DNA from: Chloroflexota bacterium | GTDB lineage: Bacteria > Chloroflexota > UBA5177 > JANWHV01 | Length of the DNA: 64,000 bases | Assembly: GCA_036559345.1 (NCBI GenBank) | Contig: DATBTL010000246.1 | Location: forward strand, 2,657 to 66,656 | Reading direction: 5' to 3' | Shown here: piece after piece, positions 463 through 39,930 of the stretch | How positions within the stretch are numbered: position 1 is the first letter of the stretch | How the letters are laid out: each line of letters opens with the position of its first letter | Program-made: the position numbers and the translations under genes | Notes under the pieces: model-generated | What the model saw: the letters and a program-made list of their open reading frames with translations, nothing else | Told to the model about the DNA's origin: nothing | Database searches by the model: none

Positions 463-475
463 CGTGTCCCCTGGG

Positions 476-987: not shown

Positions 988-2001
988 ATGCTGGACGCGT
1001 CGCATGCACATGAAAGGCCGCCGATGTCCACCACCGCCCCGTCCCTCGCCGCCCCATTAACCGCGCTCCTGCCCGCCGTGGCCGGCGATGCCCTGGGCCA
1101 GGCGCGTGCCTGGGCCGACCTGGCCTCCGACGAACGGCGCCGCCGAGCCAGCGCCGCCGCCGTGGCTCACGACGGCAGGGCCCTGGCCGCGTTGGCCGAT
1201 GCCTACCTCACCTTGCGCGGCAGCGCCGGGGCCACGGTCAGCGCCCATACCCGTCGGGCCTACCGGACCGGCATCCTGGCCCTGGTGGCGGCCTGGCGCG
1301 AGGAAAACCTGCTCCACCCTGGGCAGGAGGCGGCCGCCATCTGGCTGCGCGCCCTGGAGACCGGCGGGGCCAGTCCCAGCACGGCGCGGGTGCGCCTGGC
1401 CGGGGGGCGGCTGCTCTACCGGGCTCTCCGCTGGACACGGGCCACCGCCGCCGACCCCTTTACCGACACGCGGGCGGCGCCCGACCGCACCGCGCCCTGG
1501 GATAAACGCAGTCCCTATACTCCCGAGGAGATAGCCCAACTGCTCGGCGCCGCCTCCGTGCGCGACCAGGTGCTCGTCTTGCTGGGCGCCCATGCCGGCC
1601 TGCGGGTGGCGGAGGCATGCGCCGTGCGGTGGGAAGCCGTCGACCTCGCGACTGGGCGGCTGGTGGTAGAGGCCGGCAAGGGCGGCAAACGCCGGGTAGT
1701 GCCGCTTTCGGGGTCACTTCGGGCGGCCCTCCTCGCCCTCGGGCCTGGCAAGGGAGAGGAGCGAGTGGCGCCGATCACCGCGGACGTGGTCCGGGAACGG
1801 ATCGAACGGTTGGCGAGGAAAGCTGGGCTGCGCTACCGCGGCTATCATGCCCTGCGCCACGCGGCGGGCACGCGGGCCGCCCGCGAGGGCCTGGGTTTGG
1901 AAGGGATTGCCACCTTCCTCGGGCACAGCAACGTACAGACCAGCCGCATTTATCAGCACTGGGCGGATGAGTCGGTACGGCAGACCGTAAGCGCCTGGTG
2001 A
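988..2001 (+). CDS. Tyrosine site-specific recombinase (XerC/XerD / phage-integrase family)
   Basis: AGLRVAEACAVRW, HALRHAAGTRAA and GHSNVQTSRIYQHW supply the R...HxxR...Y catalytic signature. An alternative ATG at 1024 has a GAAAGG RBS. Confidence 0.85.
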   Translation: MLDASHAHERPPMSTTAPSLAAPLTALLPAVAGDALGQARAWADLASDERRRRASAAAVAHDGRALAALADAYLTLRGSAGATVSAHTRRAYRTGILALVAAWREENLLHPGQEAAAIWLRALETGGASPSTARVRLAGGRLLYRALRWTRATAADPFTDTRAAPDRTAPWDKRSPYTPEEIAQLLGAASVRDQVLVLLGAHAGLRVAEACAVRWEAVDLATGRLVVEAGKGGKRRVVPLSGSLRAALLALGPGKGEERVAPITADVVRERIERLARKAGLRYRGYHALRHAAGTRAAREGLGLEGIATFLGHSNVQTSRIYQHWADESVRQTVSAW

Positions 2002-4742: not shown

Positions 4743-5786
4743 ATGGGCGTCACGCTGAAGGAGCTTTCGGACAGCCTGGGGCTCTCCACATCCACGGTGT
4801 CGCGAGCCCTGAGCGGTCGGGAGTTCAAGCGGGCGTCCACCCGTGCCCAGGTGACGAGGATTCTGACGCGGGCGGGGGAGCTTGGCTACGAGCCCAATGG
4901 CCTGGCCCGGAGCCTCAAGACGAAGCGCCGCCGGGTAATCGGACTCATCTTACCGGACATCATGAACGACTACTACGCGGCGGCGGCCACCCAGGTTCAG
5001 GCGACCCTGGCAGCGGCCGGCTATCAGGTCATTCTCTGTGTCACGGGCGACGACCCGGCGATCGAAGCGGCGCAGCGGCGCCTCCTGCGAGAGGAGCGCG
5101 TGGCGGGGATGGTGGTGGTGCCGAGCCCCCAACTGGGACCCGCCCATGGCATGCCAGGCCTCCGGTCCGCCATGCCGGTGATCGAGTTGGTTCGCCACGG
5201 CGTTAATTCGCGGGACGACGCGGTATTGATTGACGATGTGGATGCCGGAAGGCAAGGTACGGAGCACCTGCTCGGTCTCGGGCATCGCCGGATCGCGGTC
5301 CTGACCGGACCAAGTACGTTCAGTACGTCGCGCCTCCGTCTCGATGGCTATCGCCAGGCGCTCGGGCAAGCGGGAGTCTCGATCGATCCGGCGATCATTC
5401 AATCCGGCCCCTATCGGCGGGATGCGGCGCGCGTGGCGACCAGCGCCCTGCTCGGAGGGCGCGACCGGCCGACCGCCCTCATCGCCACCAGCAACGAATT
5501 GGTGATCGGCGCCTTGCAGGCGCTCGCCGCCCAGAACCTCCGCGTACCGGAGGACATCTCGCTGGTCGGTTTCGGCAACGCCGACTGGTTCGCGTTGCTT
5601 CGGCCCGCGCTCACCACGCTCGCGTTGCCCATCCAGGAAATGGCCATGGCGGCGGCGCACCTGTTGTTGAAACGGATCCGTCTGCTCGACGGCCCCAATT
5701 CCGCCTACGACACGGCGCCTATCGTCGCGCGCTACCAGGCGCAACTGATCACGCGCGAGTCAACCCGCCCCCTGGCCGTTTCCTGA
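4743..5786 (+). CDS. LacI family transcriptional regulator
   Basis: ORF 4674..5786 trimmed to ATG 4743 (GGGAGGG RBS). N-terminal HTH VTLKELSDSLGLSTSTVSRAL plus a periplasmic-binding-fold C-terminus. Confidence 0.9.
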   Translation: MGVTLKELSDSLGLSTSTVSRALSGREFKRASTRAQVTRILTRAGELGYEPNGLARSLKTKRRRVIGLILPDIMNDYYAAAATQVQATLAAAGYQVILCVTGDDPAIEAAQRRLLREERVAGMVVVPSPQLGPAHGMPGLRSAMPVIELVRHGVNSRDDAVLIDDVDAGRQGTEHLLGLGHRRIAVLTGPSTFSTSRLRLDGYRQALGQAGVSIDPAIIQSGPYRRDAARVATSALLGGRDRPTALIATSNELVIGALQALAAQNLRVPEDISLVGFGNADWFALLRPALTTLALPIQEMAMAAAHLLLKRIRLLDGPNSAYDTAPIVARYQAQLITRESTRPLAVS

Positions 5787-5818
5787 AGTGGGTTGGCGAA
5801 GGACCGGCCGCGGCCTGC

Positions 5819-6745
5819 CTATTGGCCTTGCAAGCTGCCGCCCAGCAGCCCGGCCGCCCAGTATTTTCTGACCGCGACAAACAGGATGGCCACTGGCAGG
5901 GCGATGAGGAAGGCTCCGGTGATCACGTCCATGATGCTGATCGCCGAGCCGGCCGCTGAACTTGCCTGACTGCCCAGGGCGGTCTGGGCTGCCATGTTGC
6001 CCAATCCTACCGGCAGCGGCATCAGGTCGTCTCGCGCCTCCATCAAGAAAGGGAGGAAGAAGTTGTTCCAGTTGCTGACGAAGGTGAGCATCGCCACCGT
6101 GGCCAGCACGCCACGGGAGGTTGGGAGCGCGATGAAGCCAAAGATCTGGTATTCATTGGCGCCGTCAATGCGCGCCGCCTGCATAATCTCGCCGCTGAAC
6201 TGGAAACTGAAGAAGCTATAGCAGAGCCAGACACCGAAGGCGCTGGCGCTGGTCGGCAGGATCACCCCCCAGGGCGTGTTCACGATGCCGAGCTTCGAGC
6301 CTTCCAGATAGATCGGCACCGCCAGGGTGGTAGACGGAATCAACAGGGCGATAATGGTGATGAACAGCAGCGTCGTACGGCCGCGGAAGCGATACTTCGC
6401 CAGACCGAAACCGGCGGCCGCGCTGGTCACGATGACGATCGCGACGCTCGGGATCGTGTAGAGCAGCGAGTTTTTCGTCCAGGTCAGGAAGATCGAGCTG
6501 TTGTAGTTCAGCACATGGGTCACGTTGTCCCAGAGGCGAAACGACGAACCAAACCACAACGGTGACGAGGCGAATACGTCTTCCTTCGTCTTCATGCTCG
6601 CGACGATCAGCCACAGCACTGGGGCGAGAAAGTAGTAGCACAGGACGGCGAGTACCGCGGTTACCCCGAGATTGGTCAGGCGGCGGCGAAGGCGATAGTT
6701 GGTGGCCGTGGCCTGCTTTGGCGGCATTACGTTTCGCATCTCCAT
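5819..6745 (-). CDS. Carbohydrate ABC transporter permease
   Basis: The long ORF 5819..7276 overlaps the upstream permease, so it is trimmed to ATG 6745 (ATG 6739 has better GGGGGA spacing). Multi-TM with the EAA-like loop AARIDGANEYQIF. Confidence 0.85.
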   Translation of the reverse strand: MEMRNVMPPKQATATNYRLRRRLTNLGVTAVLAVLCYYFLAPVLWLIVASMKTKEDVFASSPLWFGSSFRLWDNVTHVLNYNSSIFLTWTKNSLLYTIPSVAIVIVTSAAAGFGLAKYRFRGRTTLLFITIIALLIPSTTLAVPIYLEGSKLGIVNTPWGVILPTSASAFGVWLCYSFFSFQFSGEIMQAARIDGANEYQIFGFIALPTSRGVLATVAMLTFVSNWNNFFLPFLMEARDDLMPLPVGLGNMAAQTALGSQASSAAGSAISIMDVITGAFLIALPVAILFVAVRKYWAAGLLGGSLQGQ

Positions 6746-7825: not shown

Positions 7826-9088
7826 TTACTTGACCTTTACGCCTTGCAACTTCAGGTTTGAAATCACCTGGCTCTGCAACTGCTGCAAGGTCGAATGCAC
7901 GTTCGCGCCGTTGATCATCTTGCTGGTAGCGGCAGTGACCTGTAGGTCAACATACGCCTGGTTTGGACTGTAAATCCAACCCGTTCCCGTGCGTTGCGCC
8001 GAGAGCGCCAACTGCTTGGCGACTTCGGTTGGATTAGCGAAATACGGGTCGGGCTGGAAAGCGCCCGCGACATTGTACACCCCGGTAAAGGATGGTACGG
8101 TAGCCGCCTGGTGCTGGAAGGTTGGCGAGGTGCTGCAATAGACGGCAAGCTGCTGCGCCAGGGCGAGGTGCTTGCTTTGCGGCGGGACGTAGAAGGCGCC
8201 GCCGCCCCACCACCCGACCGAAGGCAGCGAGGCGGTAAACGCCCACTGACCCTTTTGCTTGGGATAGCTAGGCTTGATCACATAGGCCCCCAGCCAGTTC
8301 GGGCCGACCGCGTATGGTACCGTGCCCTGGGAGAAAGCCTTACCGGAGACGGGCTTGGTAGGATCGTCGGGAAGGACGCCGCCGCTCCGCACCGCGGTCA
8401 CGTATTGGGTCGCCAGCTTCTCGGTCAGGGGCGTGGCGATGTTGACCGTCCAGCTCCCGTCGCTGTTCAGGGCGAACCACTTGGCGTGGTTGGCCCACGC
8501 GAGCCCTTCAAGGGCCCAGTTGTCGGCGCCAAGCCAGGCGATCGCGTATTTCTTGGTCTTCGCCAGGGTCGCGGCGTCGGCATAGACCTGATCGTACGAC
8601 GTAGGGATCTTGAGGCCGGCCGCCTTGATGGTGTTGACGTTCGACCAGATGCCCCAGGCGGCCATGTCGTGCGGCACCCCGATCAACTTGCCGCCCAGGG
8701 TGAGCGGCGCCAGGGTACCGGGCGCGTACTTCGCGCGTACGGCCGCCGGCACCAGAGCGGAGAGATCGGTGGTGAGGCCGAGTTGGTAGTAGTTCGCCGC
8801 GTATTCGACGTTGTCGAACACAACATCCGGGAACCCGCTGCCGCCGCCGGCGCGCTTGAGCACGTTGAGCTTGGGAATAGGGGCGAGCTGGGTTGTATAA
8901 ACGACTTTAACCCCGGGGTGAGAGTTTTGAAAGTCCTGCGCGCAGAGGTTCCGATCCGCCCAGGCCCACATGTTGAGCGTGACCGTCCCCTGTGGGTGCG
9001 CCGCGTGCGTGGCCGCCGGAACCCCGGCGATGGTCAGAGCCAGCATCGCGCCTACGGCGGCGCCGCGCATTTTCGTGCGTTTTTCCAT
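7826..9088 (-). CDS. ABC transporter extracellular sugar-binding protein
   Basis: Signal peptide MRGAAVGAMLALTIAGVPAATHA. About 420 aa, aromatic-rich SBP family 1 composition. First gene of an SBP-permease-permease unit. Confidence 0.9.
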   Translation of the reverse strand: MEKRTKMRGAAVGAMLALTIAGVPAATHAAHPQGTVTLNMWAWADRNLCAQDFQNSHPGVKVVYTTQLAPIPKLNVLKRAGGGSGFPDVVFDNVEYAANYYQLGLTTDLSALVPAAVRAKYAPGTLAPLTLGGKLIGVPHDMAAWGIWSNVNTIKAAGLKIPTSYDQVYADAATLAKTKKYAIAWLGADNWALEGLAWANHAKWFALNSDGSWTVNIATPLTEKLATQYVTAVRSGGVLPDDPTKPVSGKAFSQGTVPYAVGPNWLGAYVIKPSYPKQKGQWAFTASLPSVGWWGGGAFYVPPQSKHLALAQQLAVYCSTSPTFQHQAATVPSFTGVYNVAGAFQPDPYFANPTEVAKQLALSAQRTGTGWIYSPNQAYVDLQVTAATSKMINGANVHSTLQQLQSQVISNLKLQGVKVK

Positions 9089-9460
9089 GACTGTCCCCGT
9101 TCAGAAAAAAATTGCCGCCAACTAGAGAAGGTCAAACCCCGCTGGGAACGCCTAGCCGTCCTGTCCTCCTTCCGCTGTCCCTCACCGTCCGACACCACCT
9201 GTCGCGAACCGGCTCGCATATCGACATCGTTTGCACTTTTGAGTGGTTTCACTGTATGCGGTTGGCCCGACACTCGTCAAGTCTTGGACCGCGCCGATCC
9301 CTACTCATTCGAGCCGCGCCGTCATAAACAAACCGTGTTTCCGCCTTGATAAGAGAGAGGGGACAGTTCCGACCTCCTCCGCGACAGGCCAGTCCGAGTG
9401 CCATGAGTGTATCGCCTCTCGCATGAGTACAGGGTGAAGCGGGCGCCAGCCACGGTATGA

Positions 9461-9489
9461 TTGACAGCGCCAGCATCACGGCCTACACT
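9461..9489 (+). promoter_or_regulatory. Sigma-70-like promoter TTGACA-N17-TACACT
   Basis: Perfect -35 and a 4/6 -10 at 17-bp spacing, 40 nt upstream of the lyase ATG (9530). Confidence 0.45.
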
Positions 9490-9494
9490 CAATC

Positions 9495-9507
9495 TGCAAA
9501 CGTTACC
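9495..9507. promoter_or_regulatory. LacI-type operator-like motif, copy 3 (TGCAAACGTTACC)
   Basis: Matches copy 2 (TGCAATCGTTACC) at 12 of 13 positions. Lies 6 nt downstream of the -10, over the predicted transcription start. Confidence 0.45.
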
Positions 9508-9529
9508 GATTGTGCCTGGATGGAATCGC

Positions 9530-10912
9530 ATGGGTGTACACCTTATTGACTCGGCCCTGTTCGGCGACCAGTTTGGCACCGAGCCAATGCGCCGGATCTT
9601 CGCGGATACCGCGGTGGTTCGCTCCTGGGTCGCCGCGGAAGCGGCTCTGGCCCGCGCGGAGGCAACAGCTGGGCTCATCCCCAGGGAAGCGGCGGCGGCG
9701 ATTAGCACGCATGGGGCCGAGTTCACCTGGGATGCCGCCGAACTGGCGACCGGCATAGCCGAAACCTTTCACCCCCTTGTTCCCGCGATCCGCCTGCTAG
9801 CCGCGCAATGCGGCGCCGCCGGGGCGTACGTCCACTGGGGCGCTACGACCCAGGACATCATGGATACGGGAATCGTGCTGCAACTTCGTGATGCTTGCGC
9901 GCTCTTGCGCGGCGACATGCTGGCGCTACGCGACGCTTGGGCCGGCCTCGCGGCCCACTACCGCGATACGCCGATGCCTGGCCGCACCCACGGCCAGCAC
10001 GCGCCCCCCGTCACCTTTGGCTATAAAGTGGCCGTGTGGGTGGCCGAGCTTGGCCGCCATCTCGACCGGCTGGATGCGTGTTTACCGCGTTTGTTGGTCG
10101 GTCAACTGGCCGGCGCATCCGGAACCCTGGCTTCCTTTGGCCCGCACGGGTTGGAGATCCAGCGGTTGATGCTGGAGGATCTCGGGCTGGGCGTGCCGCC
10201 GATTGCCTGGCACACGGCGCGGGATGGGTTCGCCGAATTCATCGGGATTCTTGGCATGGTCTGCGCGACTCTTGGCAAGGTCGCCCTGGAAGTGATTCAC
10301 TTGCAGGCCACCGAGGTGGGCGAGTTGGAGGAACCGTTCGCCATGGGGAAGGTGGGGAGTTCCACCATGCCCCATAAGCGCAACCCCATGATCTGCGAAC
10401 TGATCGTGGCGCTCGCCAAGATTGTGCGGCAGGACGCATCGCTGGCCCTGGATACGATGGTGCAGGAGCATGAGCGCGACATGGGCGCCTGGCAAGCGGA
10501 ATGGGAATTTATTCCACGCGCCTGTTTGTTCACGGCGAGCGCGCTCGCCTATTCGGTACGGGTTGCCCAGGGTCTCAAGGTCAACACCGCGAAAATGCGC
10601 GAAAATATTGACATCACCGGAGGATTGGCCCTGTCCGAGGTGATCATGCTGGAGCTGGGCCGATTCATCGGCCGCCAGGAGGCGCACGAGGTGGTGTATA
10701 CCGTGTGCATGGGAGTGGTCGAGCGCGGCGGCTCGTTCCGCGAGGCCCTGCTGGCGGAGCCGGCGGTCAGCGCGCACCTCAGCCCCGATCAGATCGACGA
10801 ACTCTTGCGCCCTGAACGCTATCTCGGGGCGGCGCCGGTTGGGGTCGACCGGGTACTGGCCGCCATCGATCGCGGCGCCGCCGTGGTTCCCGAGCCATTG
10901 GCGCGCCTATGA
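9530..10912 (+). CDS. Class I lyase family protein (3-carboxy-cis,cis-muconate cycloisomerase / adenylosuccinate lyase-like)
   Basis: ORF 9461..10912 trimmed to ATG 9530. HWGATTQDIMDT and the signature GSSTMPHKRNP. Confidence 0.85.
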   Translation: MGVHLIDSALFGDQFGTEPMRRIFADTAVVRSWVAAEAALARAEATAGLIPREAAAAISTHGAEFTWDAAELATGIAETFHPLVPAIRLLAAQCGAAGAYVHWGATTQDIMDTGIVLQLRDACALLRGDMLALRDAWAGLAAHYRDTPMPGRTHGQHAPPVTFGYKVAVWVAELGRHLDRLDACLPRLLVGQLAGASGTLASFGPHGLEIQRLMLEDLGLGVPPIAWHTARDGFAEFIGILGMVCATLGKVALEVIHLQATEVGELEEPFAMGKVGSSTMPHKRNPMICELIVALAKIVRQDASLALDTMVQEHERDMGAWQAEWEFIPRACLFTASALAYSVRVAQGLKVNTAKMRENIDITGGLALSEVIMLELGRFIGRQEAHEVVYTVCMGVVERGGSFREALLAEPAVSAHLSPDQIDELLRPERYLGAAPVGVDRVLAAIDRGAAVVPEPLARL

Positions 10913-20167: not shown

Positions 20168-20455
20168 CTATACAGGCCGGTAGCCGAGTCCCACCGAGAT
20201 CCGATCACAGACGTCTTTGACCGCGGCTCCAACCCGAGGTACGAGATCCCCATCCAGCCGAGCGGATGCCGAGGAAATGCTGATGGCTCCTTCGACAGTA
20301 CCGTCCATGGCGCGGATCGCGGCGCCGATACAGCGAGCGCCCAACTCTCGTTCCTCGTCATCGACCGCATAGCCGGCGACACGGATTCGCGCCAGTTCCT
20401 CCCGAAGGAGAGAGCGATTGGTGGCCGGGTGTGCCCTCCGACCGCTGGAGCGCAT
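20168..20455 (-). pseudogene. IclR-family regulator, C-terminal fragment only
   Basis: ELARIRVAGYAVDDEERELGARCIGAAIRAMDGTVEGAISISS matches the IclR effector-domain end. The HTH and first half are absent. Abuts the kinase fragment. Confidence 0.6.
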
Positions 20456-21002
20456 GACCGCGACAGCCCAGGCTATCGCGGCGGGGGGCGACGGCGCGCT
20501 TGACCGGCGGTTGCGCCTCCCCGTGCACCGTGACGAGGTGGGCCGGCTGGCTACAACATTCGACCGAATGCTCGACCGTATTCAGGACACCATCGCCGAG
20601 CGCGTGCGCTCCGAGAGCCGGCTGCGCCATTTCGCCGCCGACGCCCCGCACGAGCTGCGCACCCCGCTCGCGGCGGTGAGCGGCTACACCGAGGTGCTGT
20701 TGCTGGGCGGCAAAGACGACCCGGAGACCGCCGCGCACATGCTGCGCCGGATGGACGACGAACTCGCCAGGATGAATCGTCTGGTCGGCGACCTCTTGAC
20801 GCTCGCTCGCCTGGAAGCAGGGCTGCCTATGCATGTCCAGGCCCTACCGGCGGCGCCGCTGCTGAAGGGGCTGATCGAGGAGACGCGTCTATTGGCTGCG
20901 CGCTTCGGGCGCGATCTTGTTATCGGGACCGGCCCGCCAAACGGAGAGGCCGACACGCTCACCGTACTGGCCGACTCCGATCGCCTGCACCAAATTCTGC
21001 TT
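20418..21002 (+). pseudogene. Sensor histidine kinase fragment (HAMP + HisKA only)
   Basis: HAMP-like LRPLERMTATAQAIAAGG..DEVGRLATTFDRM and H-box FAADAPHELRTPL. Homology stops at DRLHQILL, with no sensor/TM region or HATPase_c domain. Confidence 0.65.
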
Positions 21003-21564
21003 ATTCACGGTTATCCTGCCGGCAGACAGCTAACTCCCCCGCGTGGGCGCAAAAGGCTACCCAGGTACTGTTGGGGCTCGATCCCTAAACGAGTTGTGCG
21101 CTCAGGACAAAGGATAGGTGATCTTGCGTATCCCGTACCATCCAATGACGGCGATCCGCTATAGTCCGAAATCCAGGCGGCACAACCGGGCGTGCGCGGG
21201 GCCTTTGACCGTTCCTGCACATAGTAAATAACTCCTCTACCCATGCTCGCCAGCCCCAACCAACTAACAACAAGGAAGGGTATCTCACTATGTGCAGTTG
21301 CCCTCTCAACTCGGCACATGGGCTACCGCGTCTCGACGGATTGTCCAATCCCCCCAGACGCGAAGCTCGCCAGAGTCGCGAATACCCACCTCTCCGCTCA
21401 GCACGTACTTTTCGTAAGCCACAATCCCCATGAAGGGAAGCGTCCGGGCTCATCCGGATTCATCGCTCCTCCGCGCGTCGCCCGGCAATTTTGAGCAGCA
21501 ACCTTGTCCTTCGTTATGCGCCGCGTCTGGGACTGAGCAACGGAGAACTCCTACTGGACCAGTA

Positions 21565-21711
21565 CATTTGGCAGCGCATCGGCCGCCCTTGACCATGCTT
21601 TCGCCCGTTCCCCGACGCGCCCGCATCGCGCAGTACGACCTTGGCGCGCCGGATTATGACGCGCCGGCAAAGGAGATATTCGGTGGCCTCATCGCCTCGC
21701 TCGCGCCCTGA
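21565..21711 (+). pseudogene. parA C-terminal remnant
   Basis: HLAAHRPPLTMLSPVPRRARIAQYDLGAPDYDAPAKEIF aligns by eye with the intact ParA tail IAAQHYAPLHVLPPIPRANSIARVDLRATGYDAAAKELF. No Walker A region lies upstream. Confidence 0.4.
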
Positions 21712-22159
21712 CCTGCTGGTCCGGCAGATGCTTGAGGAGTCAGGCACCGGGCCGATCACCGCCGCCGATGCCTCGTTTGTCCCCATGTCTCGCGCCCTGC
21801 GGATTCCCATCGAGCGTATTGCCCCTAATCCAGATAACCCTCGGAAGTCCTTCGAGGGTTTGGCGGATCTCGCGGCCTCAACCGGGGATCGGGGCCTCCT
21901 GCAACCGCTTGTGGTGCGGCGCGACCCCGAGCGGCCTGGCTATTATGTAACGATTGCCGGGTCGCGCCGCTTGATGACCGCTCTCCTTGTGTACCAAGGG
22001 GATCTTCCCGCCAGTCAGCAGTGGGTGGCGACGCTTCCGTGCGTCGCGGACGAGGTAGACTCGGATGCCTTTGCCGACACCCTGGCCGAGAACATGGCGC
22101 GGCAAGATCTCAGTCGCGCCGAGGTGATGGAGGCCGTCCTGCGGCTTGCGCCGGGATAA
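21656..22159 (+). pseudogene. Truncated ParB paralogue (N-terminal ParB/Srx domain, no HTH)
   Basis: RIPIERIAPNPDNPRKSFEGLADLAAS..LLQPLVVRRDPERPGYYVTIAGSRRL parallels ParB at 34402. It terminates just before the position of the HTH. Confidence 0.55.
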
Positions 22160-32179: not shown

Positions 32180-33321
32180 ATGAGCACAGCCCCGCAGGTG
32201 CATTTTGCGACCCTCGATGCAGTCCTGGAACGGATCACCTACGCCAATGAGGAGACCGGCTATACCGTCGCCCGCGTCGCCACCGCACAGGGCGGCAGTG
32301 GCCTGCTTACCGTGGTCGGCTCCCTGCTTGGCGCACAGCCGGGCGAGAGTCTCCGCCTGCGCGGTGTCTGGAAGTCGCATCCACAGTGGTGCTGGGCTTG
32401 GGATCCAAGCGCACGTCGATGACCGGTCGGGCCTGGGAGGAACAGAAGGCGATCAAGGAGGTCATGCTCTTTCTCCAGGGGGTGGGAGTGTCCACCTCGC
32501 TCGTCGTGCGCATCTATAAGACCTACAGGGACGCCAGTATCTCCGTGGCCAAGAACGAGCCCTACAAGCTGGCCGGAGATGTGTGGGCCATCGGCTTCAA
32601 GACCGTCGACACGATTGCGCAGGCGATGGGCATCCCGCACGATAGCCCCCCAACGGGTCAAGGTGGGACTCCAGTTCACGCTTTCGGAGGCCAGCAACGA
32701 AGGTCACTACTATCTCCCGCAAGCCGCCCTGATCGCCACCGCAACGGCGATTCTCACCGTGGAGTCGGTGCTTGTCGAGACCTGCCTGACGGATCTCTCG
32801 GAGGAGGAAGGGGTAATCACGGAGTATCTCCCAGGCCCTGCGGGCGGCGCGACAATCCCGGCCGTCTACCTGGTGCCGTTCTACCGCGCCGAGGTGTCAT
32901 TGGCGCACGGACTCCGCCGTCTGCTGCAGGCATCGACCGAGCGCTTACCGACTTTTCAGCGTGTGGACTGGGAGGCGGCTATGACATGGTTGCAGCGTAC
33001 GACCAGGAGCACGCTGGCGCCCGAACAGGGCGCGGCAGTCCGTCTGGCCCTGACCGAGAAGGTGGCGGTGCTCACTGGCGGCCCGGGCTGTGCGAAGAGC
33101 TTCACCGTGCGCTCCATTGTCACCCTGGCCCGGGCGAAACGGGCCAGGGTCGTCCTCGTCGCGCCGCCAAACGCCTTGCCGAACTCGCGGGCATGGAAGC
33201 CGCGATGCTGCACCGGCTGCTCCAGTTGCGGCCGGGCGGGCCACCGTACTGGTCCACCGCTCCAGTTGCGGCGCCGTGTCACCGGCGAGGCGAGGACGTG
33301 ATCGGGCCCCTGCGGCGGTGA
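32180..33321 (+). pseudogene. RecD2-like SF1 helicase pseudogene (frameshifted, internally deleted, 3'-truncated)
   Basis: The RecD2 N-terminus ERITYANEETGYTVARV..LLTVVGSL..GESLRLRGVWKSHPQW continues in other frames: WEEQKAIKEVMLFLQGVGVS..., then ...LTGGPGCAKSF, then RRAAKRLAELAGMEAAMLHRLLQL. At least three frame changes; helicase motifs beyond motif I/Ia are missing. Confidence 0.75.
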
Positions 33322-33358
33322 CGCGGGCGACCATGCTACAGCGCTGCTTAACCGGAGA

Positions 33359-33374
33359 TGTCGGATTTCCGACA
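33359..33374. promoter_or_regulatory. 16-bp palindrome TGTCGGATTTCCGACA (candidate parS, copy 1)
   Basis: 7-bp perfect arms. It is the exact reverse complement of the copy at 35537. Lies 109 nt upstream of parA. Confidence 0.45.
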
Positions 33375-33431
33375 GCATCTGACCCTTTTTGCACGGGATA
33401 CCGCTCGGGCCAGGGCGAAAATCCATGCATC

Positions 33432-33440
33432 TTGTCCACA
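33432..33440 (+). promoter_or_regulatory. DnaA-box-like 9-mer TTGTCCACA
   Basis: Exact match to the high-GC (actinobacterial-type) DnaA box form. A single copy, so chance occurrence is possible. Confidence 0.25.
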
Positions 33441-33482
33441 AACCCCTGGCAATACTCAACCACCACGCGTATAGTTTCTTCC

Positions 33483-34415
33483 ATGACTGCACAAGAAGGT
33501 AGGGTGTCGCGCGCTGGGACGACCGAACTCCTGAGTACGGCGAATGTCGCCGAGGCCCTGACCATCAGTCGGTCTCGCGTCCTGGCGCTCATACGCGGCC
33601 AACGGCTCCCAGCAATCAAGATAGGCCGTGAATGGCTGATCGAGAAAGCGGACTTGGGTATGGTGACTGAGCGACACGTTGGCAGACCACGGGCCGTGAT
33701 CTCCGAGCCCCCGGCGCCCAGGAAACCGGCGGGGCTGCCTGGGCAGGCGTCCAGTCCGCGCCCTGCCGCCTCTCCAGGGGCTCACCTAAGGCCGCGGACC
33801 ACCTATACGCTCGCGATCGGCGCCCAGAAAGGCGGGGTTGCCAAAACCACTACTACCCTCTATCTTGCCGCGCGCGCGGCGGCGCATTTTGGCAGCACGC
33901 CGGAACACCCAACCGTATGTATCCTGGATCGCGACGAAGCTCAGAATCTCTCGGTCCTTGCGCGCCTCGATCCAGACGTGATCGCGCCCGGTGTACGCTT
34001 ACTGGAGGGAAGCAATGTCCCCGCGCCGGCGCAGGGCTATCGCATGGTCCTCGTCGACACGCCGCCCGGGCTCGCGGCCCTGGATGCGTTGCGGGACGCT
34101 GACCTTCTGGTCGTGCCAGTGCTGGCGGAAAAGCAGGGGGTGGCCAACCTCTCGCAGTATCTGCGCCTGATCGAGGGACTGCGCCGCACGACCAATCCGC
34201 GGTTGCGATTGCTGGCCGTGCTCCCCACTATCGTGGAAAAGCGCAATGCCTTGCACCGCGATATGCTTGAGCTTATCGGACAGATTGCCGCCCAGCACTA
34301 CGCGCCGCTCCATGTGCTTCCCCCTATCCCGCGGGCGAATAGCATCGCGCGTGTCGATTTGCGCGCCACGGGGTATGACGCCGCTGCGAAGGAACTCTTC
34401 GATGCCCTCGGCTAA
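33483..34415 (+). CDS. parA: ParA-family partition ATPase with N-terminal excisionase/MerR-type HTH
   Basis: ORF 33090..34415 trimmed to ATG 33483. HTH LLSTANVAEALTISRSRVLALIRGQRLPAIKIGREWLI, then a Pro-rich linker, then deviant Walker A AQKGGVAKTT and Walker B MVLVDTPP. Confidence 0.9.
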   Translation: MTAQEGRVSRAGTTELLSTANVAEALTISRSRVLALIRGQRLPAIKIGREWLIEKADLGMVTERHVGRPRAVISEPPAPRKPAGLPGQASSPRPAASPGAHLRPRTTYTLAIGAQKGGVAKTTTTLYLAARAAAHFGSTPEHPTVCILDRDEAQNLSVLARLDPDVIAPGVRLLEGSNVPAPAQGYRMVLVDTPPGLAALDALRDADLLVVPVLAEKQGVANLSQYLRLIEGLRRTTNPRLRLLAVLPTIVEKRNALHRDMLELIGQIAAQHYAPLHVLPPIPRANSIARVDLRATGYDAAAKELFDALG

Positions 34416-35535
34416 GAGGCGGCGGGAAATCCAGTTCGCCGCTGATCTCCTGGGCGACGATCAGGGTGGCACACCATACGACAACGACGTCAAGGCAGCG
34501 GAGGGGTCGTTTCAGCGCATGGCCGACGCCTACCTGATTCCCATTCAGCGCCTCTCACCCAACCCCAACAACCCGCGACGCCAGATTACTCATCTTGAGG
34601 AACTGGCGGCGTCCATCGCCGAGACCGGACATGTGCTGCAAAACCTGGTAGTGCGCCGGCATCCCGACAACGCCGGATTCTACATCGTCACCGCCGGCAG
34701 CCGCCGCCTCGGGGCCGTGCAATTGTTGAATGATGGCGGTGTGCCCGGAGTGAGCGTCCATATCGACGCCCTACCCTGCGTGATCGAGGAAAGGTCGGCG
34801 GATCAAACCTATCTCGACGCATTGACCGAGAACGCCGCCCGGGAGGATCTTACCCGGGCCGAGCTCATGGATGCCGTCCTCTATATCAGCCGCGCCTACC
34901 GCTTCTCCGCCCGTGAAATCGCCAGGCGTATCGGGCGCCATCACTCAGACATCTCCGAATTGCTCGGCGTGGCGCGCGACGAGGAAGTGGCGACCCTTGT
35001 ACGAAGTGAGGTCATCAACACCAGCGTCGGCGCCGCCATTGCAAAGCAACCGCCGCCAGCGCGGCAGGAGATCCTGGCCGCCGTTCGGCAGCGGCATATA
35101 CGCACGGCGGCCGACGTAGCTCGCCTGGCAGCCAGGGTGACCCACAACGGCCTGCCGCCACGATCACCCGACTTCCCCGAATGGGATGGCGTCCCGGTCG
35201 CCCATCCCGGCCAGGATGCGGACGAGCCGGCCACGGTCTTTGTAACGCCCGTTGACACGAGCGCCAGGAACGCCGGCGTCCCCAACCAGAATCAACCGCA
35301 CGAAATCGAGCACTCCGCGCAATATCATGTAGGTCGTGGCGCCGCCGAGGCGCGCGCGGCGGCCCGGGACGGACTGCGCCGGGTCGCGCGCTTCCCGGAC
35401 CCTGAATTCCAGGCAGTACTCGACCTCCTTGCCTACGGCAGGGCATATCATCTGCAATGGCAGGTAGCCTTGCAGGAACTGCTGCAAGAGCGCGGCATGG
35501 TTGAACGAGAGCAACGTGCTGATGGGCCAAGCTGA
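34402..35535 (+). CDS. parB: ParB-family partition protein
   Basis: Trimmed to ATG 34402, overlapping the parA stop. IPIQRLSPNPNNPRRQ and VTAGSRRLGA (ParB box II-like GxxR), followed by HTH FSAREIARRIGRHHSDISELL. Confidence 0.9.
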   Translation: MPSAKRRREIQFAADLLGDDQGGTPYDNDVKAAEGSFQRMADAYLIPIQRLSPNPNNPRRQITHLEELAASIAETGHVLQNLVVRRHPDNAGFYIVTAGSRRLGAVQLLNDGGVPGVSVHIDALPCVIEERSADQTYLDALTENAAREDLTRAELMDAVLYISRAYRFSAREIARRIGRHHSDISELLGVARDEEVATLVRSEVINTSVGAAIAKQPPPARQEILAAVRQRHIRTAADVARLAARVTHNGLPPRSPDFPEWDGVPVAHPGQDADEPATVFVTPVDTSARNAGVPNQNQPHEIEHSAQYHVGRGAAEARAAARDGLRRVARFPDPEFQAVLDLLAYGRAYHLQWQVALQELLQERGMVEREQRADGPS

Positions 35536-35552: not shown

Positions 35553-35738
35553 CCACCCTCATGTTTCTACAGGGGGTGCGCCATGGTATCGACACCGACA
35601 ACCGAGGTGAAGGTCGGACGGCGTGGTAGAAAGCATGAATTGCCAGCACGGGGCACCAGGCGCATGCGCCGATCCATCGGAATCAGAACCCCTTTGAGAC
35701 TAGCAAGGTGGATTGGCTGAAGCGGGAAGGCTGCCGGG

Positions 35739-37556
35739 ATGGCTGAGGAAGATAACGGCCCACACACTGCCCATGAGGCGCGGATGGCCCTCGATTATGC
35801 TCGCGATCTCCTGAGAACGGCGGCAGCGGGGACTACCAAGGGCGGGTTGGGCGCCTTTCGCTCTGAGTTGGATCGCGCGCAAGAACAGCTCGCCACGGAT
35901 CCGGATGGCGCCCGTGCTCACGTCGATGCCGTGCTGGAGGCACTGGAGCAATTGGGGCTGCCGGGCAGTCATTCCGTGGACATGCTCGACGTGTTCTTCG
36001 CTCAATGGCGATCGTACGTCACCTTACGGGAGCAGCGGGGCGCACTTGCCGGCGATCCATGGCACAATGCGATGCTGTTCATCTGGACGGAGGACGGCGA
36101 GCCCCCACGCGAGAATTCCTTGCATATTCTCACCTGCCGCCTGCCTGGCGGGGACGAGCCGCCGTTTGTCCTCCCAACCAAGTTGCAAAAGAAGACCAGC
36201 CAGGAGCTCCTGCCCTGGATGACCTGGCGAGCGGATCAGCAGCCCGAGCTACAAGCCCTACAGCGGCCAGTCACGCGGTATGTGGCGCTCTACGTACGGG
36301 GTGAGCAACTCTGCTGGGACGCCTCGCCCGACTACCCCCTGTGCGACGAAGCGCCCGATGTGCGGACCCTGATGCTGCCGCCACGTCGGTGGGGCGAGCT
36401 TGCCGCGCTGCCGCCGGGAGAAGCGCCACGACCGACGCTCCCCGCACCGACACATCCATCCGCGCGTCCCGCCATGCCGGCCCCCTCAATCCTGGATCAA
36501 GATAATGTCGCCATCGGTTCGAGTACGCTCCTACCCCACACCTTCCGCGCCATGCGTATGCCTGGCCGATGGATGCGCCCCGGCAACGGCAATCCGCCGT
36601 ATTACGAGGAACTGCATGAGGGGGTAGCAGAGGCTGATCGGGTCAAAGTGCTGCTCCACCCGTCCGATGGCCGGAGCCCCTTGACTCCCGAGCAGGAAGC
36701 GGCGGCCTATGAGGCCGTGCTCGGTCTGGACGACGATAAGGTGCGCGCCTTCGCCATCGCGCTTGGCTCCTGGTTTGCCGGCACCGGCGGCGGTGACGCG
36801 CACATGCCCAAGGTCACGGTGACAGCCAACGCACTGCTGGAATTCCAGGGGGTCAAGCGCAACAAGGGCGCGTATAGACCAGCACAAAAGGAGAAGGTGG
36901 CCAATGATGTCTGGGCGCTGAATTCCATCTTCATTCGCGGGCCACAGGTCGTGTACGATGCGCGCGGTCGCCGCAAGATCGTAAAGGTGCGCTCCCGCCT
37001 GCTTGAGGTGGCGCAGGAGGACGAAACCAACCTACTGGGGGAGGACACTCCCTATGCCTTCCGCATCGCGCCGGGTGAGTGGATCAAACCACTGATTGAG
37101 GAAGGTACCCGCTACGTGGCTGTGTTGCTCTCTCCCGTCCTGCGCTACAACCCCAGACAGGGCGTGGAGTTGATCGCCATGCGCATTGGTCTTCATCTGG
37201 CCCTGCATTGGCGGTTCCGAGCGGCACAGGGCAATTTCGACCAGCCATGGAATATGACAACCCTGTTGGAGAGCACCGGGATTGAGATTCCGACGCACCG
37301 AGAACAGCGCAGGCGATTGATCGAGAACTTCGAGCGGGCCATGGACCGCCTGCGGGAGGACGGCGTGCTGGCAAGTTGGGAATACGTGCGCCTGGTGATG
37401 GAGGTGAATCCCACGGCCGTGTTCGCCGAGTGGATCACCCGCACGGTGCGCGTGATGCCGCCCCGGGCGGTGACCGATCAGTACGCGGGCATTGCCAGGC
37501 GGCATCGCTTAGAGGTGGCGGCGAGTAAGCGCCGTGCGCCGCGACAGACGGTTTAG
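35739..37556 (+). CDS. Hypothetical 605-aa protein (possible replication-associated protein)
   Basis: Long uninterrupted ORF with a GGGAAGG RBS. No family recognised. A Pro-rich linker (PPGEAPRPTLPAPTHPSARPAMPAP) separates two halves. It ends 10 nt before the first iteron. Confidence 0.75.
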   Translation: MAEEDNGPHTAHEARMALDYARDLLRTAAAGTTKGGLGAFRSELDRAQEQLATDPDGARAHVDAVLEALEQLGLPGSHSVDMLDVFFAQWRSYVTLREQRGALAGDPWHNAMLFIWTEDGEPPRENSLHILTCRLPGGDEPPFVLPTKLQKKTSQELLPWMTWRADQQPELQALQRPVTRYVALYVRGEQLCWDASPDYPLCDEAPDVRTLMLPPRRWGELAALPPGEAPRPTLPAPTHPSARPAMPAPSILDQDNVAIGSSTLLPHTFRAMRMPGRWMRPGNGNPPYYEELHEGVAEADRVKVLLHPSDGRSPLTPEQEAAAYEAVLGLDDDKVRAFAIALGSWFAGTGGGDAHMPKVTVTANALLEFQGVKRNKGAYRPAQKEKVANDVWALNSIFIRGPQVVYDARGRRKIVKVRSRLLEVAQEDETNLLGEDTPYAFRIAPGEWIKPLIEEGTRYVAVLLSPVLRYNPRQGVELIAMRIGLHLALHWRFRAAQGNFDQPWNMTTLLESTGIEIPTHREQRRRLIENFERAMDRLREDGVLASWEYVRLVMEVNPTAVFAEWITRTVRVMPPRAVTDQYAGIARRHRLEVAASKRRAPRQTV

Positions 37557-37566
37557 ACAGTGGTAT

Positions 37567-38024
37567 CCCTCATCGGATGTGACGCCACCGGGTCAGGGTT
37601 GTTGCAACAGACGTTTTGATTGGATGACCGTGCGCACATCCCCTCATCGGGTGTGACGCCGCCTTGTTCGTTGGCGAGAATATCCTCTTTACCCCTCATT
37701 GGGTGTGACGCATTGCTACCGCCCGCCAACAGTGTCGCGCGAACGAACGGTATGCGAGCCCATTCGGCTGGGCATCGAGAGCCGTAAAGGCCCGGTTGCC
37801 CGGGCACGGCGGCATCTGATCGCTCAGAGCACCGTCCGATTGTCCACCTGTCCTTCCGACAAGGGGAAACGCTCGGCGCCCCTCATCAGGTGTGACGCGG
37901 TCGCATGGATCTGACAAAGGAGCGGTGACACCGTGCTTTTCACCCTCATCTGATGTGACGCCCTCACGGGCCGTGGCGGAATCCCTCATGGACTGTGGCG
38001 GAATCCCTCACGAGGTGTGACGCT
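37567..38024 (+). repeat. Iteron-like direct repeat array (8 copies of a ~20-bp motif)
   Basis: Copies: CCCTCATCGGATGTGACGCC (37567), CCCTCATCGGGTGTGACGCC (37641), CCCTCATTGGGTGTGACGCA (37693), CCCTCATCAGGTGTGACGCG (37880), CCCTCATCTGATGTGACGCC (37943), degenerate CCCTCACGGGCCGTGGCGGA (37961), CCCTCATGGACTGTGGCGGA (37983), CCCTCACGAGGTGTGACGCT (38005). All lie on the same strand. Confidence 0.75.
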
Positions 38025-38049
38025 CAGCCAGAGAAAACGGCTTCCCTAT

Positions 38050-38067
38050 TAGATCTACTAGATCTAC
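38050..38067 (+). repeat. Tandem 9-mer TAGATCTAC x2 in a locally AT-rich patch (possible unwinding element)
   Basis: Two exact tandem copies, each containing GATC, 25 nt after the last iteron. Flanking CTATTAGATCTACTAGATCTACC is unusually AT-rich for this sequence. Confidence 0.45.
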
Positions 38068-38139
38068 CACGGGCCTTCATCACGGCGCTACCGGTGGTAC
38101 ATGTCAGAATAGAGGCGGCGAACACCAGGTTCCGCCACG

Positions 38140-39765
38140 GTGCGGGTATGTTCCCGCCGCGTGATAGGTGAAGAAAGGGACGTCAACGTGCAGGCTCAGG
38201 CGAGAATACGCGACCGAAGTCCGCGATGCGAGCGCGAGCGTGCCGCCAGACCAACACCCGACCAATCGCAAGACTACCCCAGCGGGCCAGACGCCAGCCA
38301 GCAATCGCGCGCCTCCGAGGGGTGCGCACAAGGGCAAGTCGCCCTGACCTGGTGCCCACCAGGGATAGGGTCCGCTAGGACCGGCGGTACCACCGCGCCA
38401 GAGGAGGAGGATCGCGACCGCCCTACCATTGTCGTCCAGGACACCGCTCATCGATCCGGGTTTACGCTTGTACCGAACCAGCTGCTCTTCGCCAGGGGCT
38501 TGACGCACGGCGCCAAGCTCACCTACGCCCTCTTACTGGGCTACGCATGGCAGGAGGGCAGTTGCTTCCCCGGGCAAGAGCGCCTAAGTGAGGATCTCGG
38601 TGTAGAGCGCAAGGCGGTCATCCGCTATCTCAAGGAATTGAAGGACAGCGGCATGGTGCGGGTAATCCGGCGTGGCCTCGGGCAAACAAATCTCTATATC
38701 CTGCCGAAGCTGGCAGATGTCGCGTTGTTGGCCAAGGAGCCAGTTTCATCGCCTGATGTCCCCCAAATCGGATATCAGCAAGTCCCGAGTCTGGGCCAAC
38801 CGGTTGTCTTGGGTAGCGGACACTACGTACACCCAGCGGACAAGACACAGAAAAGAAGTCATTCGATTCGACTCGACTCCTGTCAAGCGGAATCAATGCC
38901 TGTGGCGAAGGCGCCAATTACCCTGCTTGCGTCCCAACGGATGCGGTTACGCTCAGCTATCCGCGGTGAAGAGCCATGCCGCGACAAGCCGGATTCACCG
39001 CCCCAGGATAGCCAGTCTCCAGCTGGACTCACTGGGCACATCGCCCCAGGAGACTCCAGTCCCGCCGGCGCATGCGACGCCTTGGTGCGACCGCAAGCGC
39101 CAAATCGGTCATTCCGGAAATCCTCTTCCCGTGCCACGCGGCGGAATGTTGCGCCAGACGTGCCGCCGCATGAAGCCGAGAAAGCGGTGGCGGCGATCCT
39201 GGAACCGCTCCGCCGAACGTTCCGTGATGCCGCATCGAATCGGGCGACCATCACGCGGGCAGTACACCTTCTTGATTGCTCTGGGCTTGAATCAGCAGTG
39301 TTTATCCGGTTCTTGCACGAAGCGGCGGCACGCACGCGCGGCAGTCTACAGGTTGGCGTCATAACGAGTAACCCGATGGCGTATTTCTTCGCCTGCCTGG
39401 TCCAGCTTCTCGACGATACGGTCCATCCGGACGCTCCTCCTGAGCCCGGAAGGCCACGGAGGGCGGGACCGCCAGGAGGAGCGCCCAGCCATGACGCCGT
39501 GGCCTGTAGCCCCGACGATCATCCTCTTTGGGCGCGGGTACGGGAGGAACTGGCCGCCACCATCGCGGAAAGAAGCTACCGGGAGATGGTCGCGCCTACC
39601 CATGTGATCGCCGATGACGGGTTGGTGCTGCGCGTGGCGACGGGCTCCGCCTTTCAGCGTGACTGGCTCACCAATCGGCTTGGCAAGAGAATTACCGACA
39701 TCCTTTCCGACCTCGGCCGTGAGAACCCGCGGGTTGAATTTGAGGTGCCACAAACTGTTACCTAA
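38140..39765 (+). CDS. Putative replication initiator: wHTH (HTH_36-like) domain plus DnaA-N-terminal-like C-terminus
   Basis: FTLVPNQLLFARGLTHGAKLTYALLLGYAWQEGSCFPGQERLSEDLGVERKAVIRYLKELKDSGMVRV fits the plasmid/phage replication-protein HTH pattern. C-terminal LWARVREELAATIAERSYREMVAPTHVIADDGLVLRVATGSAFQRDWLTNRLGKRITDIL resembles DnaA domain I. Start is GTG 38140 or GTG 38188 (AAGAAAGGGA RBS). Confidence 0.7.
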   Translation: MRVCSRRVIGEERDVNVQAQARIRDRSPRCERERAARPTPDQSQDYPSGPDASQQSRASEGCAQGQVALTWCPPGIGSARTGGTTAPEEEDRDRPTIVVQDTAHRSGFTLVPNQLLFARGLTHGAKLTYALLLGYAWQEGSCFPGQERLSEDLGVERKAVIRYLKELKDSGMVRVIRRGLGQTNLYILPKLADVALLAKEPVSSPDVPQIGYQQVPSLGQPVVLGSGHYVHPADKTQKRSHSIRLDSCQAESMPVAKAPITLLASQRMRLRSAIRGEEPCRDKPDSPPQDSQSPAGLTGHIAPGDSSPAGACDALVRPQAPNRSFRKSSSRATRRNVAPDVPPHEAEKAVAAILEPLRRTFRDAASNRATITRAVHLLDCSGLESAVFIRFLHEAAARTRGSLQVGVITSNPMAYFFACLVQLLDDTVHPDAPPEPGRPRRAGPPGGAPSHDAVACSPDDHPLWARVREELAATIAERSYREMVAPTHVIADDGLVLRVATGSAFQRDWLTNRLGKRITDILSDLGRENPRVEFEVPQTVT

Positions 39766-39930
39766 GTCGATTGCCATAGAAAGGTAGATGGTCGTAGCCT
39801 GTGGGTCTGGAGGGGCGCGGGATGGCGATGGAACTGACTAGCGAGGCGCGTACGGTCCTGGAAGGGGCGTTGCGGCAGACGCGGTGGGTCCGCGAATGGC
39901 GACGCTATGAGGCGCTGAGGCGCGGATTGC

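Follow-up and report, generated by a model that had tools for sequence, protein, structure and literature searches.

A candidate iteron-type replication origin and its sequence-orphan putative initiator in a plasmid-like replicon of Chloroflexota

Among the closest known systems to the locus reported here are the iteron plasmids of Proteobacteria (RK2 oriV with TrfA, F ori2 with RepE, pPS10 with RepA, R6K with pi and P1 with RepA), the IncQ plasmids (RSF1010/R1162), in which RepC acts on 20-bp iterons with a 22-bp repeat together with the RepA helicase and the RepB' primase, and the origin ori2 of Vibrio cholerae, whose initiator RctB has, to our knowledge, been treated as specific to the Vibrionaceae and derived from plasmid initiators. 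Our literature searches found no paper on a plasmid or chromid origin of the phylum Chloroflexota, and the replication of such replicons appears to be essentially uncharacterised there. Here we describe a locus within a stretch of 64,000 nucleotides from a Chloroflexota bacterium (assembly GCA_036559345.1, contig DATBTL010000246.1, positions 2,657 to 66,656 of the forward strand), referred to below as the window. We propose, with a probability of about 0.72, that positions 37567-38068 are the oriV of an iteron-controlled, plasmid-like secondary replicon, in which the product of the upstream gene (protein X) would bind the repeats and the product of the downstream gene would be the adaptor that recruits the helicase. 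The kind of origin is a known one, an iteron-type oriV; new are the sequence-orphan initiator candidate with an RctB-like fold, its DnaD-like/DnaA-domain-I fusion partner and the host phylum. The main features, as read from sequence and structural models, are the following.

35739..37556, plus strand: protein X, 605 aa, the proposed initiator (an alternative gene caller starts it 15 aa later)
37567-38023, plus strand: eight same-strand copies of the iteron, 19-bp consensus CCCTCATnnnnTGTGACGC
38046..38068, plus strand: proposed DNA-unwinding element CTATTAGATCTACTAGATCTACC, with two tandem 9-mers
38188..39765, plus strand: downstream replication protein, 525 aa (maximal open reading frame, ORF, from 38140)

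The likeness to V. cholerae ori2 and RctB lies in a large (~600 aa) multidomain initiator, here a putative one, with the central or C-terminal part of X matching RctB domains 2-3, in head-to-tail phased iterons beside an AT-rich element, in the presence of GATC in the origin, in a dedicated parAB adjoining it and in extra, irregularly placed initiator sites that are possibly regulatory. The two systems differ in that there is no detectable sequence similarity between them and that the iterons are 19 bp long here, whereas those of ori2 are 11-12-mers. GATC, which is not kept in every lineage, is found here in the proposed unwinding element instead of the iterons. The Chloroflexota locus, far removed from the Vibrionaceae, has no conserved DnaA box, has an extra DnaD-like protein with a DnaA domain I, and no equivalents of the 39-mer or of crtS were identified in it.

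With the classical proteobacterial iteron plasmids the locus shares direct repeats in the range of 17-22 bp phased at ~22 bp, an adjoining unwinding element with repeated short motifs and an initiator gene beside the origin, the last two being putative here. Separate clusters of iterons, plausible sites of copy-number control (handcuffing), are common to both. Unlike the initiators of these plasmids, X falls outside the Rep_3-type Pfam families and its fold match is to RctB; the structures of RepE, pi and RepA were not among the matches of its model. A second difference is that conserved DnaA boxes are missing here and that a second protein encoded by the element carries a DnaA domain I.

The iteron array and the adjoining AT-rich element

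A preliminary description of the region had listed eight copies of a pattern with a centre of four or five free nucleotides. The pattern CCCTCAYN4TGTGRCG has seven exact matches (37567, 37641, 37693, 37880, 37943, 37983 and 38005), all on the plus strand, and no other copy in the 64 kb, where 0.00 were expected by chance from shuffled sequences. The centre is N4 in every copy and N5 in none. At 37961 there is indeed an eighth copy (CCCTCACGGGCCGTGGCG), a degenerate one, which lies outside the pattern originally given because CGTG replaces TGTG. Summarised in this way (type A, see below) the iteron reads CCCTCAT-N4-TGTGACGC, with seven exact and one degenerate copy. Two further particulars of that description stood: five copies have 0-2 mismatches to the 20-bp consensus (threshold <=3), in line with the claimed agreement at 17 or more positions, and the last four copies are indeed 18, 22 and 22 bp apart.

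From start to start, the complete series of spacings is 74, 52, 187, 63, 18, 22 and 22 bp. The first two correspond to ~7 and ~5 helical turns, and the last three or four iterons, the proximal set, lie on a two-turn repeat of 22 bp. The whole array occupies a single 460-bp stretch of the window, and in public collections a two-iteron pattern had only two hits, a contig of a GTDB genome and a metagenome contig from JGI, both of them homologous loci. Within these sequences the motif is confined to this locus, as had been anticipated. The individual copies are listed below.

37567..37585, plus strand: iteron 1, CCCTCATCGGATGTGACGC, distal set, kept in the related loci L001 and L008
37641..37659, plus strand: iteron 2, CCCTCATCGGGTGTGACGC, distal set, exact match to the consensus
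37693..37711, plus strand: iteron 3, CCCTCATTGGGTGTGACGC, distal set, followed by the 187-bp spacer
37880..37898, plus strand: iteron 4, CCCTCATCAGGTGTGACGC
37943..37961, plus strand: iteron 5, CCCTCATCTGATGTGACGC, opening the closely packed proximal set
37961..37979, plus strand: iteron 6, CCCTCACGGGCCGTGGCGG, degenerate, with one base in common with iteron 5, aligned in six lineages
37983..38001, plus strand: iteron 7, CCCTCATGGACTGTGGCGG, 22 bp past iteron 6
38005..38023, plus strand: iteron 8, CCCTCACGAGGTGTGACGC, 22 bp past iteron 7, the last before the unwinding element
38029..38037, plus strand: conserved box CAGAGAAAA, whose distance to iteron 8 is constant
38102..38121, plus strand: conserved block TGTCAGAATAGAGGCGGCGA, a stretch of 95% identity to L001, partly retained in L017

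Beyond the last iteron, two tandem copies of TAGATCTAC are found at 38050-38067. Each 9-mer includes the palindrome TAGATCTA and a GATC site, and TAGATCTA occurs at only two sites in the window, 38050 and 38059, against 0.19 expected. The preliminary description had placed these repeats in the most AT-rich patch of the region and, by nearest-neighbour energy, none of the 63,980 20-mers in the window is less stable than the one that begins at 38046.

For the comparison with relatives, six lineages from Chloroflexota metagenome-assembled genomes (MAGs) and metagenomes were used: the window, L001 (with L008), L017, L019, L024 and L020. The closest are L001, a contig of a Chloroflexota MAG, and the metagenome contigs L008 and L010, with ~78% DNA identity to positions 36467-39765. 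They have the same eight-iteron array, with spacings in L001 and L008 of 75, 52, 189, 64, 19, 22 and 22 bp. Between the window and L001, 93% of the iteron core positions are identical, compared with 63.5% of the other intergenic positions (Fisher p = 7e-12) and 66% of the central N4 of the iterons. Also conserved between the two are CAGAGAAAA, CTATTAGATCTAnTAGATCTACC, TGTCAGAATAGAGGCGGCGA and the ribosome-binding site with the GTG/ATG start at 38188. The spacer between iterons 3 and 4 has diverged in sequence while hardly changing in length (187 bp in the window, 189 bp in L001, 187 bp in L017). Three small ORFs that overlap the array (37553-37807 and 37696-37989 on the minus strand, 37699-37914 on the plus strand) were rejected as genes because indels of 1-2 nt and the ~63% identity to L001 break their reading frames. 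The MAG of L001 has a second contig with a homologue of X (L023, DATLQX010000282.1, 233-1126; 85% identical to X residues 91-388); this bin may hold two related replicons or strains. The more distant loci are the following.

L017/L018: X 63% identical to that of the window; type A iteron CCCTCATCAGGTGTGACG, 8-9 copies including a half-site; gene order parA-parB-X, array, then CCAGAGTAA and CTATTAGATCTATTAGATCTACC
L019: X 57% identical; 12 iterons gCCGCCATCnggTGTGACGC; then CAGAGTAA and AAAAGATCTACTAGATCTAG, followed by a 429-aa DnaD_N/HTH_36 protein
L024: X 56% identical; 10 iterons of the L019 type; then CAGAGGAA and TAATAGATCTACTATTTCTACC, followed by a winged-helix protein
L020/L021: X 41% identical; 22-bp tandem TATCCGCCCCCAGGTGTGACGC, three copies in L020 and two in L021; then CAGAGTAAAACGGCTTCC and CTATATCTATGATATCTAC, followed by a DnaB_C-type helicase and a zinc-ribbon/Toprim primase

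Wherever the DNA is readable, the array begins no more than ~20-100 bp past the stop codon of the X homologue. All six lineages can be aligned without a single gap over the 115 nt from the last three iterons to the tandem 9-mers. The common core is made up, in this order, of three iterons phased at 22 bp (the 22/22-bp spacing is present in six of the six), the invariant columns CAGAG.AA and two tandem 9-mers with ATCTA, a repeat retained in every lineage. Within the unwinding element itself, 22 of 23 positions are invariant across the window, L001 and L017. GATC is absent from L020, which has TATC instead, and from the second 9-mer of L024, and this loss weakens control by GATC methylation (Dam) as a general feature of these origins. 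In L017, the ORF past the array (8933-10252) opens with a weak winged-helix (HTH_36/DnaD_N) match and then continues for 580 nt out of frame into the adjoining gene of a short-chain dehydrogenase; possibly this is an adaptor gene that has been truncated or has decayed, beside an intact core of X, iterons and unwinding element.

L020 and L021 have no winged-helix protein, and no parAB within 6 kb. Their functional layout is that of an IncQ replicon: tandem iterons at 22 bp (three perfect ones in L020), an AT-rich element, and a DnaB-like helicase and a Toprim primase of their own. A difference from IncQ is that X and P0174 match no Pfam family, and X cannot be assigned to the RepC family because it matches none. 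The window differs further in having the winged-helix-DnaA_N protein in place of the helicase and primase, so neither the RepC-family initiator nor the helicase-primase pair that would define an IncQ-type replicon is found in it.

As a possible promoter of the downstream gene, the conserved block TGTCAGAATAGAGGCGGCGA may provide an extended -10 element (TGn-CAGAAT). Next to it, in the leader of that gene, an insertion of 22 nt with respect to L001 and L008 (38122-38143) folds into a GC-rich hairpin, GCGGCGAACACCAGGTTCCGCCAC, picked up by a scan as a terminator-like structure of the minus strand.

Locus-specific repeats in one orientation, phasing at ~22 bp and an adjacent AT-rich element with short repeats are what is expected of an iteron oriV; a host DnaA box within the origin, also expected, finds no support here. 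The near-DnaA box TTGTCCACC of the preliminary description is present at 37840-37848, but sites with at most one mismatch to TTGTCCACA are no commoner than by chance (7 found in the window, 7.9 expected), and the site is not conserved, being TTGCCCGCC in L001 and unalignable in L017. Between 37557 and 38187 there is no match with at most one mismatch to TTATCCACA, a consensus that may not be that of Chloroflexota. We have therefore rejected this box as part of the origin. What remains of the earlier proposal, an oriV with its initiator encoded by a flanking gene, is favored by the confinement of the motif, its conserved architecture and the replication-type genes at its sides.

The flanking proteins as candidate iteron binders

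In protein X, a disordered linker (227-255) joins an N-terminal domain (~aa 1-225) to the C-terminal half (~255-600), which is conserved. It matches no family in Pfam, NCBIfam or PHROGs, its homologues make up only 14 clusters among 5.8 billion proteins, and relatives were found in a single MAG among the GTDB species genomes and in none of the IMG/VR viral contigs. Its AlphaFold2 model has a mean predicted local distance difference test (pLDDT) score of 73.5, with 78-93 over most of aa 260-550. The only fold in the PDB matched with E <= 0.001 is that of RctB domains 2-3 (5tbf, E 1.3e-5, probability 1.0), and the model has in this respect a two-domain initiator fold like that of the central domains of RctB. 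The Foldseek alignment covers 336 columns, with a target-normalised template-modelling (TM) score of 0.53-0.55 and a root-mean-square deviation of 8-9 Å. The latter suggests that the two domains of X, as modelled, are oriented differently from those of RctB, and for this reason we take the relationship as a likeness of fold and not as membership of a family. Orlova et al. (PMC5397143) liken the two central domains of RctB to the replication initiators of plasmids, and describe in RctB no fewer than three DNA-binding motifs of the winged-helix kind. The model of X also matches an uncharacterised 584-aa protein of Myoviridae sp. ctrEx11 (BFVD A0A8S5V5R6; E 1.4e-6, 346 columns), so an RctB-like fold may occur in the replication modules of phages or phage-plasmids.

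The downstream protein is of a different nature. Its AlphaFold2 model has a disordered N terminus and three confident domains separated by disordered linkers.

aa 80-180, nt 38425-38727: winged helix, DnaD/RepA_N-like
aa 327-412, nt 39166-39423: helical domain
aa 446-519, nt 39523-39744: DnaA domain I

Pfam recognizes HTH_36 (46.4 bits, cut-off 25) and DnaA_N (PF11638, 33.1 bits, cut-off 24.6) and finds no match for the central helical domain. By Foldseek, the winged helix resembles the N-terminal domains of staphylococcal RepA (4pql, 5kbj, 4pt7) and DnaD (2v79) as well as primosomal DnaB (5wtn), and the C-terminal domain resembles DnaA domain I (4tps, TM 0.69-0.71; phmmer against 4tps_B, E 0.018). 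Family and fold thus agree for both the DnaD-type winged helix and the DnaA domain I. The PHROGs families matched by the winged helix are annotated as 'replication initiation protein', 'DnaD-like helicase loader' and 'O-like', and its relatives match Pfam DnaD_N above the cut-off. Close homologues were few by word-indexed search, and a full profile search at E <= 1e-30 revealed a large family of 553 cluster representatives. In this winged-helix family, many proteins have 300-350 aa and no DnaA_N, and a subset of 420-520 aa has it. Distant homologues directly follow parA and a small partner gene in contexts resembling plasmids or integrative and conjugative elements, with relaxase, coupling-protein-like, toxin-antitoxin and integrase genes. 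The DnaA domain I seems also to circulate in such elements as a separate module, to judge from a stand-alone 90-aa protein with a weak match to DnaA_N alone in L011 (10320-10592), ~4 kb past a DnaD_N+DnaA_N homologue.

As to the start of this gene, 38188 is likely because the ribosome-binding site GAAAGGGAC and the GTG/ATG start are conserved. The 85 aa that follow the GTG are poorly conserved, with mismatches lacking codon periodicity (26/32/36). As the stretch is open and free of indels in both lineages, this start is likely, though not certain. The shorter JGI start (TTG, codon 121 of the maximal ORF) was rejected since the conserved opening of the winged helix, GFTLVPNQLL, would be lost.

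The winged-helix fold is shared with the RepA_N initiators of Firmicutes (pSK41/pTZ2162 RepA) and with the DnaD/DnaB adaptors. Here, unlike in those systems, DnaA domain I is fused onto the DnaD-like protein itself, the central helical domain is without a Pfam match, the iterons are intergenic and not within the rep gene, and a separate RctB-like protein is present. Two studies of Bacillus subtilis (PMC6393240, PMC10201431) present DnaA domain I as the surface contacted by DnaD and by the helicase. The downstream protein is probably a helicase-recruiting adaptor.

A way to ask which of the two proteins binds the iterons is to see which one changes with them. Aligned in register, the iterons fall into three types: A (C-CTCAT-C-nGG-TGTGACGC), B (C-GCCAT-C) and C (C-GCCCC-C). 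The right half is constant, and the left half (CCCTCAT in A, GCCGCCAT in B, CCGCCCCC in C) shifts with the divergence of X. Among the type A loci (window, L001 and L017) the C-terminal 350 aa of X are 81-94% identical, and the type B pair, L019 and L024, share 84%. Identity falls to 65-70% between A and B and to 43-46% between type C and all others. The downstream proteins follow a different course. Those of the window and L017, both of type A, are only 30% identical (alignment score 65), and the L017 protein scores higher, 135-146, against type B loci. Between the window and L001, X is 94% identical and the downstream protein 55-67%. Synteny, this co-variation and the RctB fold taken together make X, on sequences and models, the better candidate for the iteron-binding protein.

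The strongest alternative, which we consider unlikely, accepts the iteron origin and assigns binding to the downstream winged-helix-DnaA_N protein (38188-39765), leaving to X an accessory or regulatory role. Iterons upstream of rep are the classical order, found in many iteron replicons, and the winged helix matches the initiator families of PHROGs and, by fold, the iteron-binding N-terminal domain of staphylococcal RepA. Homologues beside parA in elements without X are the sole Rep candidate there, and the winged helix is nearly identical in the window and L001, which share their iterons. Against this, L020 and L021 keep both iterons and unwinding element without any winged-helix protein, the L017 protein is nearer to those of type B loci in spite of its type A iterons, the distant winged-helix homologues (L003-L007, L011-L016) have no convincing iteron arrays nearby, and the RctB-like fold belongs to X.

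Several observations nevertheless weigh against our assignment of the origin and of its binder. The case for X as the binder is built on six lineages, with three types of iteron among them, and on one fold match, and neither phmmer nor a profile search (hmmsearch) against PDB chains found a relative of X at the sequence level. The gene order and the high conservation of the downstream winged helix between window and L001 would favor the other protein, and the lack of arrays near its distant homologues has to be set beside them. There is no switch of GC skew across the array, the genes on both of its flanks are on the plus strand, and a scan of the region for sigma-70 promoters called 0 sites, the TGTCAGAATAGAGGCGGCGA block included; the same scan gave two weak terminator-like hairpins, which were judged irrelevant.

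Partition genes and the kind of replicon

Immediately upstream of X are the genes of a partition system.

33090..34415, plus strand: ParA-type partition ATPase with an N-terminal HTH_17 (Pfam AAA_31, CbiA and HTH_17; NCBIfam ParA_partition)
34246..35535 (maximal ORF), plus strand: ParB-type protein (Pfam ParB_N and HTH_ParB; NCBIfam parB_part, 66.4 bits, cut-off 58.45)

The coordinates of parA are also those of the maximal ORF, so its true start may be further downstream. The HTH_17-ParA fusion is found as well in L014 (3344-4285). In L020, a free-standing 72-aa HTH_17 protein (5780-5998) is encoded directly upstream of the X homologue and is 44% identical to the N-terminal HTH_17 (excisionase/MerR-like) domain of the ParA of the window. 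Upstream of parA and overlapping it, an ORF on the plus strand (32386-33321) has only a RecD2-type HHH domain (PF14490, E 4.7e-23); without a helicase core, it could be either a fragment of a gene or a small accessory protein that binds DNA within the partition/replication module.

The vicinity of these genes raises the alternative that ParB or X binds the array as a centromere for segregation, or as an operator for transcriptional control of the parA-parB-X operon, and that the array is not an origin. The centromeres of some plasmids, sopC of F among them, consist of direct repeats arrayed downstream of their par genes. Repeats resembling a centromere or an operator, and bearing no relation to the present iterons, do occur beside par genes in other elements: short tandem GACCCTAAGnGGA units beside parA and its partner in L013 (3290-3366), and GCATGC-type units upstream of parA and upstream of rep in L014 (3048-3208 and 4845-4874). 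In L020 and L021, nonetheless, array and AT-rich element follow X with no parAB within 6 kb and are themselves followed by helicase and primase, and in L019 parAB is divergent, on the other side of X. The canonical parS TGTTTCACGTGAAACA had no match with up to 3 mismatches, and the least stable DNA with tandem 9-mers beside phased repeats are features of an origin. We regard a centromere or operator as very improbable. Least credible of all is a dispersed or selfish repeat (of the repetitive extragenic palindrome/bacterial interspersed mosaic element, REP/BIME, or miniature inverted-repeat transposable element, MITE, kind) or a functionless chance cluster, for which speaks only that the array is repetitive intergenic DNA, given the absence of further copies from the 64 kb and, outside homologous loci, from the public collections, and a same-strand arrangement whose spacing is conserved where the flanking DNA is only ~63% identical.

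The rest of the window has accessory genes of catabolism or transport, with ABC transporters, dehydrogenases and regulators, and Rfam and tRNA scans found no tRNA, rRNA or other Rfam match in it. Its left end has a PIN-domain toxin (19-603, minus strand) and a tyrosine recombinase (988-2001, plus strand), which fit a replicon that is mobile or plasmid-like, such as one in need of dimer resolution. A 172-aa protein with ParB_N alone (21641-22159, plus strand) adjoins a 248-aa HAMP+HisKA fragment (20418-21164, plus strand) for which Pfam reported no ATPase domain; the pair may be left over from a rearrangement, or may represent a ParB-like nuclease/CTPase that belongs to a different system. The window looks more like a megaplasmid or chromid than a core chromosome. 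Neither the PLSDB plasmids nor the INPHARED phages had a megablast match to 35700-39800.

A model for initiation and its implications

For the iteron origin with X as initiator, the following sequence of events can be envisaged. Monomers of X would bind head to tail to the phased proximal iterons and distort the DNA, and the adjoining TAGATCTAC element would melt next. The downstream protein would then join the open complex, where its DnaA domain I would bring in the host replicative helicase, standing in for the DnaA boxes and host DnaA of the classical iteron plasmids. The lack of a conserved DnaA box, along with a DnaA domain I encoded by the element, suggests, speculatively, an origin independent of such boxes. 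In elements of the L020 type, the delivery of the helicase would fall to their own helicase and primase. The four distal iterons (37567-37898), with their conserved irregular distances, most likely serve to titrate or 'handcuff' the initiator for the control of copy number, and parAB, immediately upstream, would provide segregation.

More tentatively, and at somewhat less than even odds, X may be the founder of a new, sequence-orphan family of iteron-binding initiators in mobile replicons of Chloroflexota, with RctB as a distant structural relative. The origins of this family would be modular and free of DnaA boxes, with the same core coupled either to a DnaD-like protein, whose own DnaA domain I would be a portable substitute for host DnaA in recruiting the helicase, or to a DnaB-like helicase and a primase encoded by the element.

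A structural relative of RctB in a distant phylum, a link that here is one of fold comparison only, bears on the origin of the initiators of secondary chromosomes. The two solutions found at the same core, a DnaD-like protein with DnaA domain I fused to it in one case and a helicase-primase pair in the other, amount to a natural experiment in the delivery of helicase without DnaA boxes. Along more practical lines, a minimal replicon made up of X, the origin of ~500 bp and the adaptor gene could seed genetic tools for a phylum that has very few vectors.

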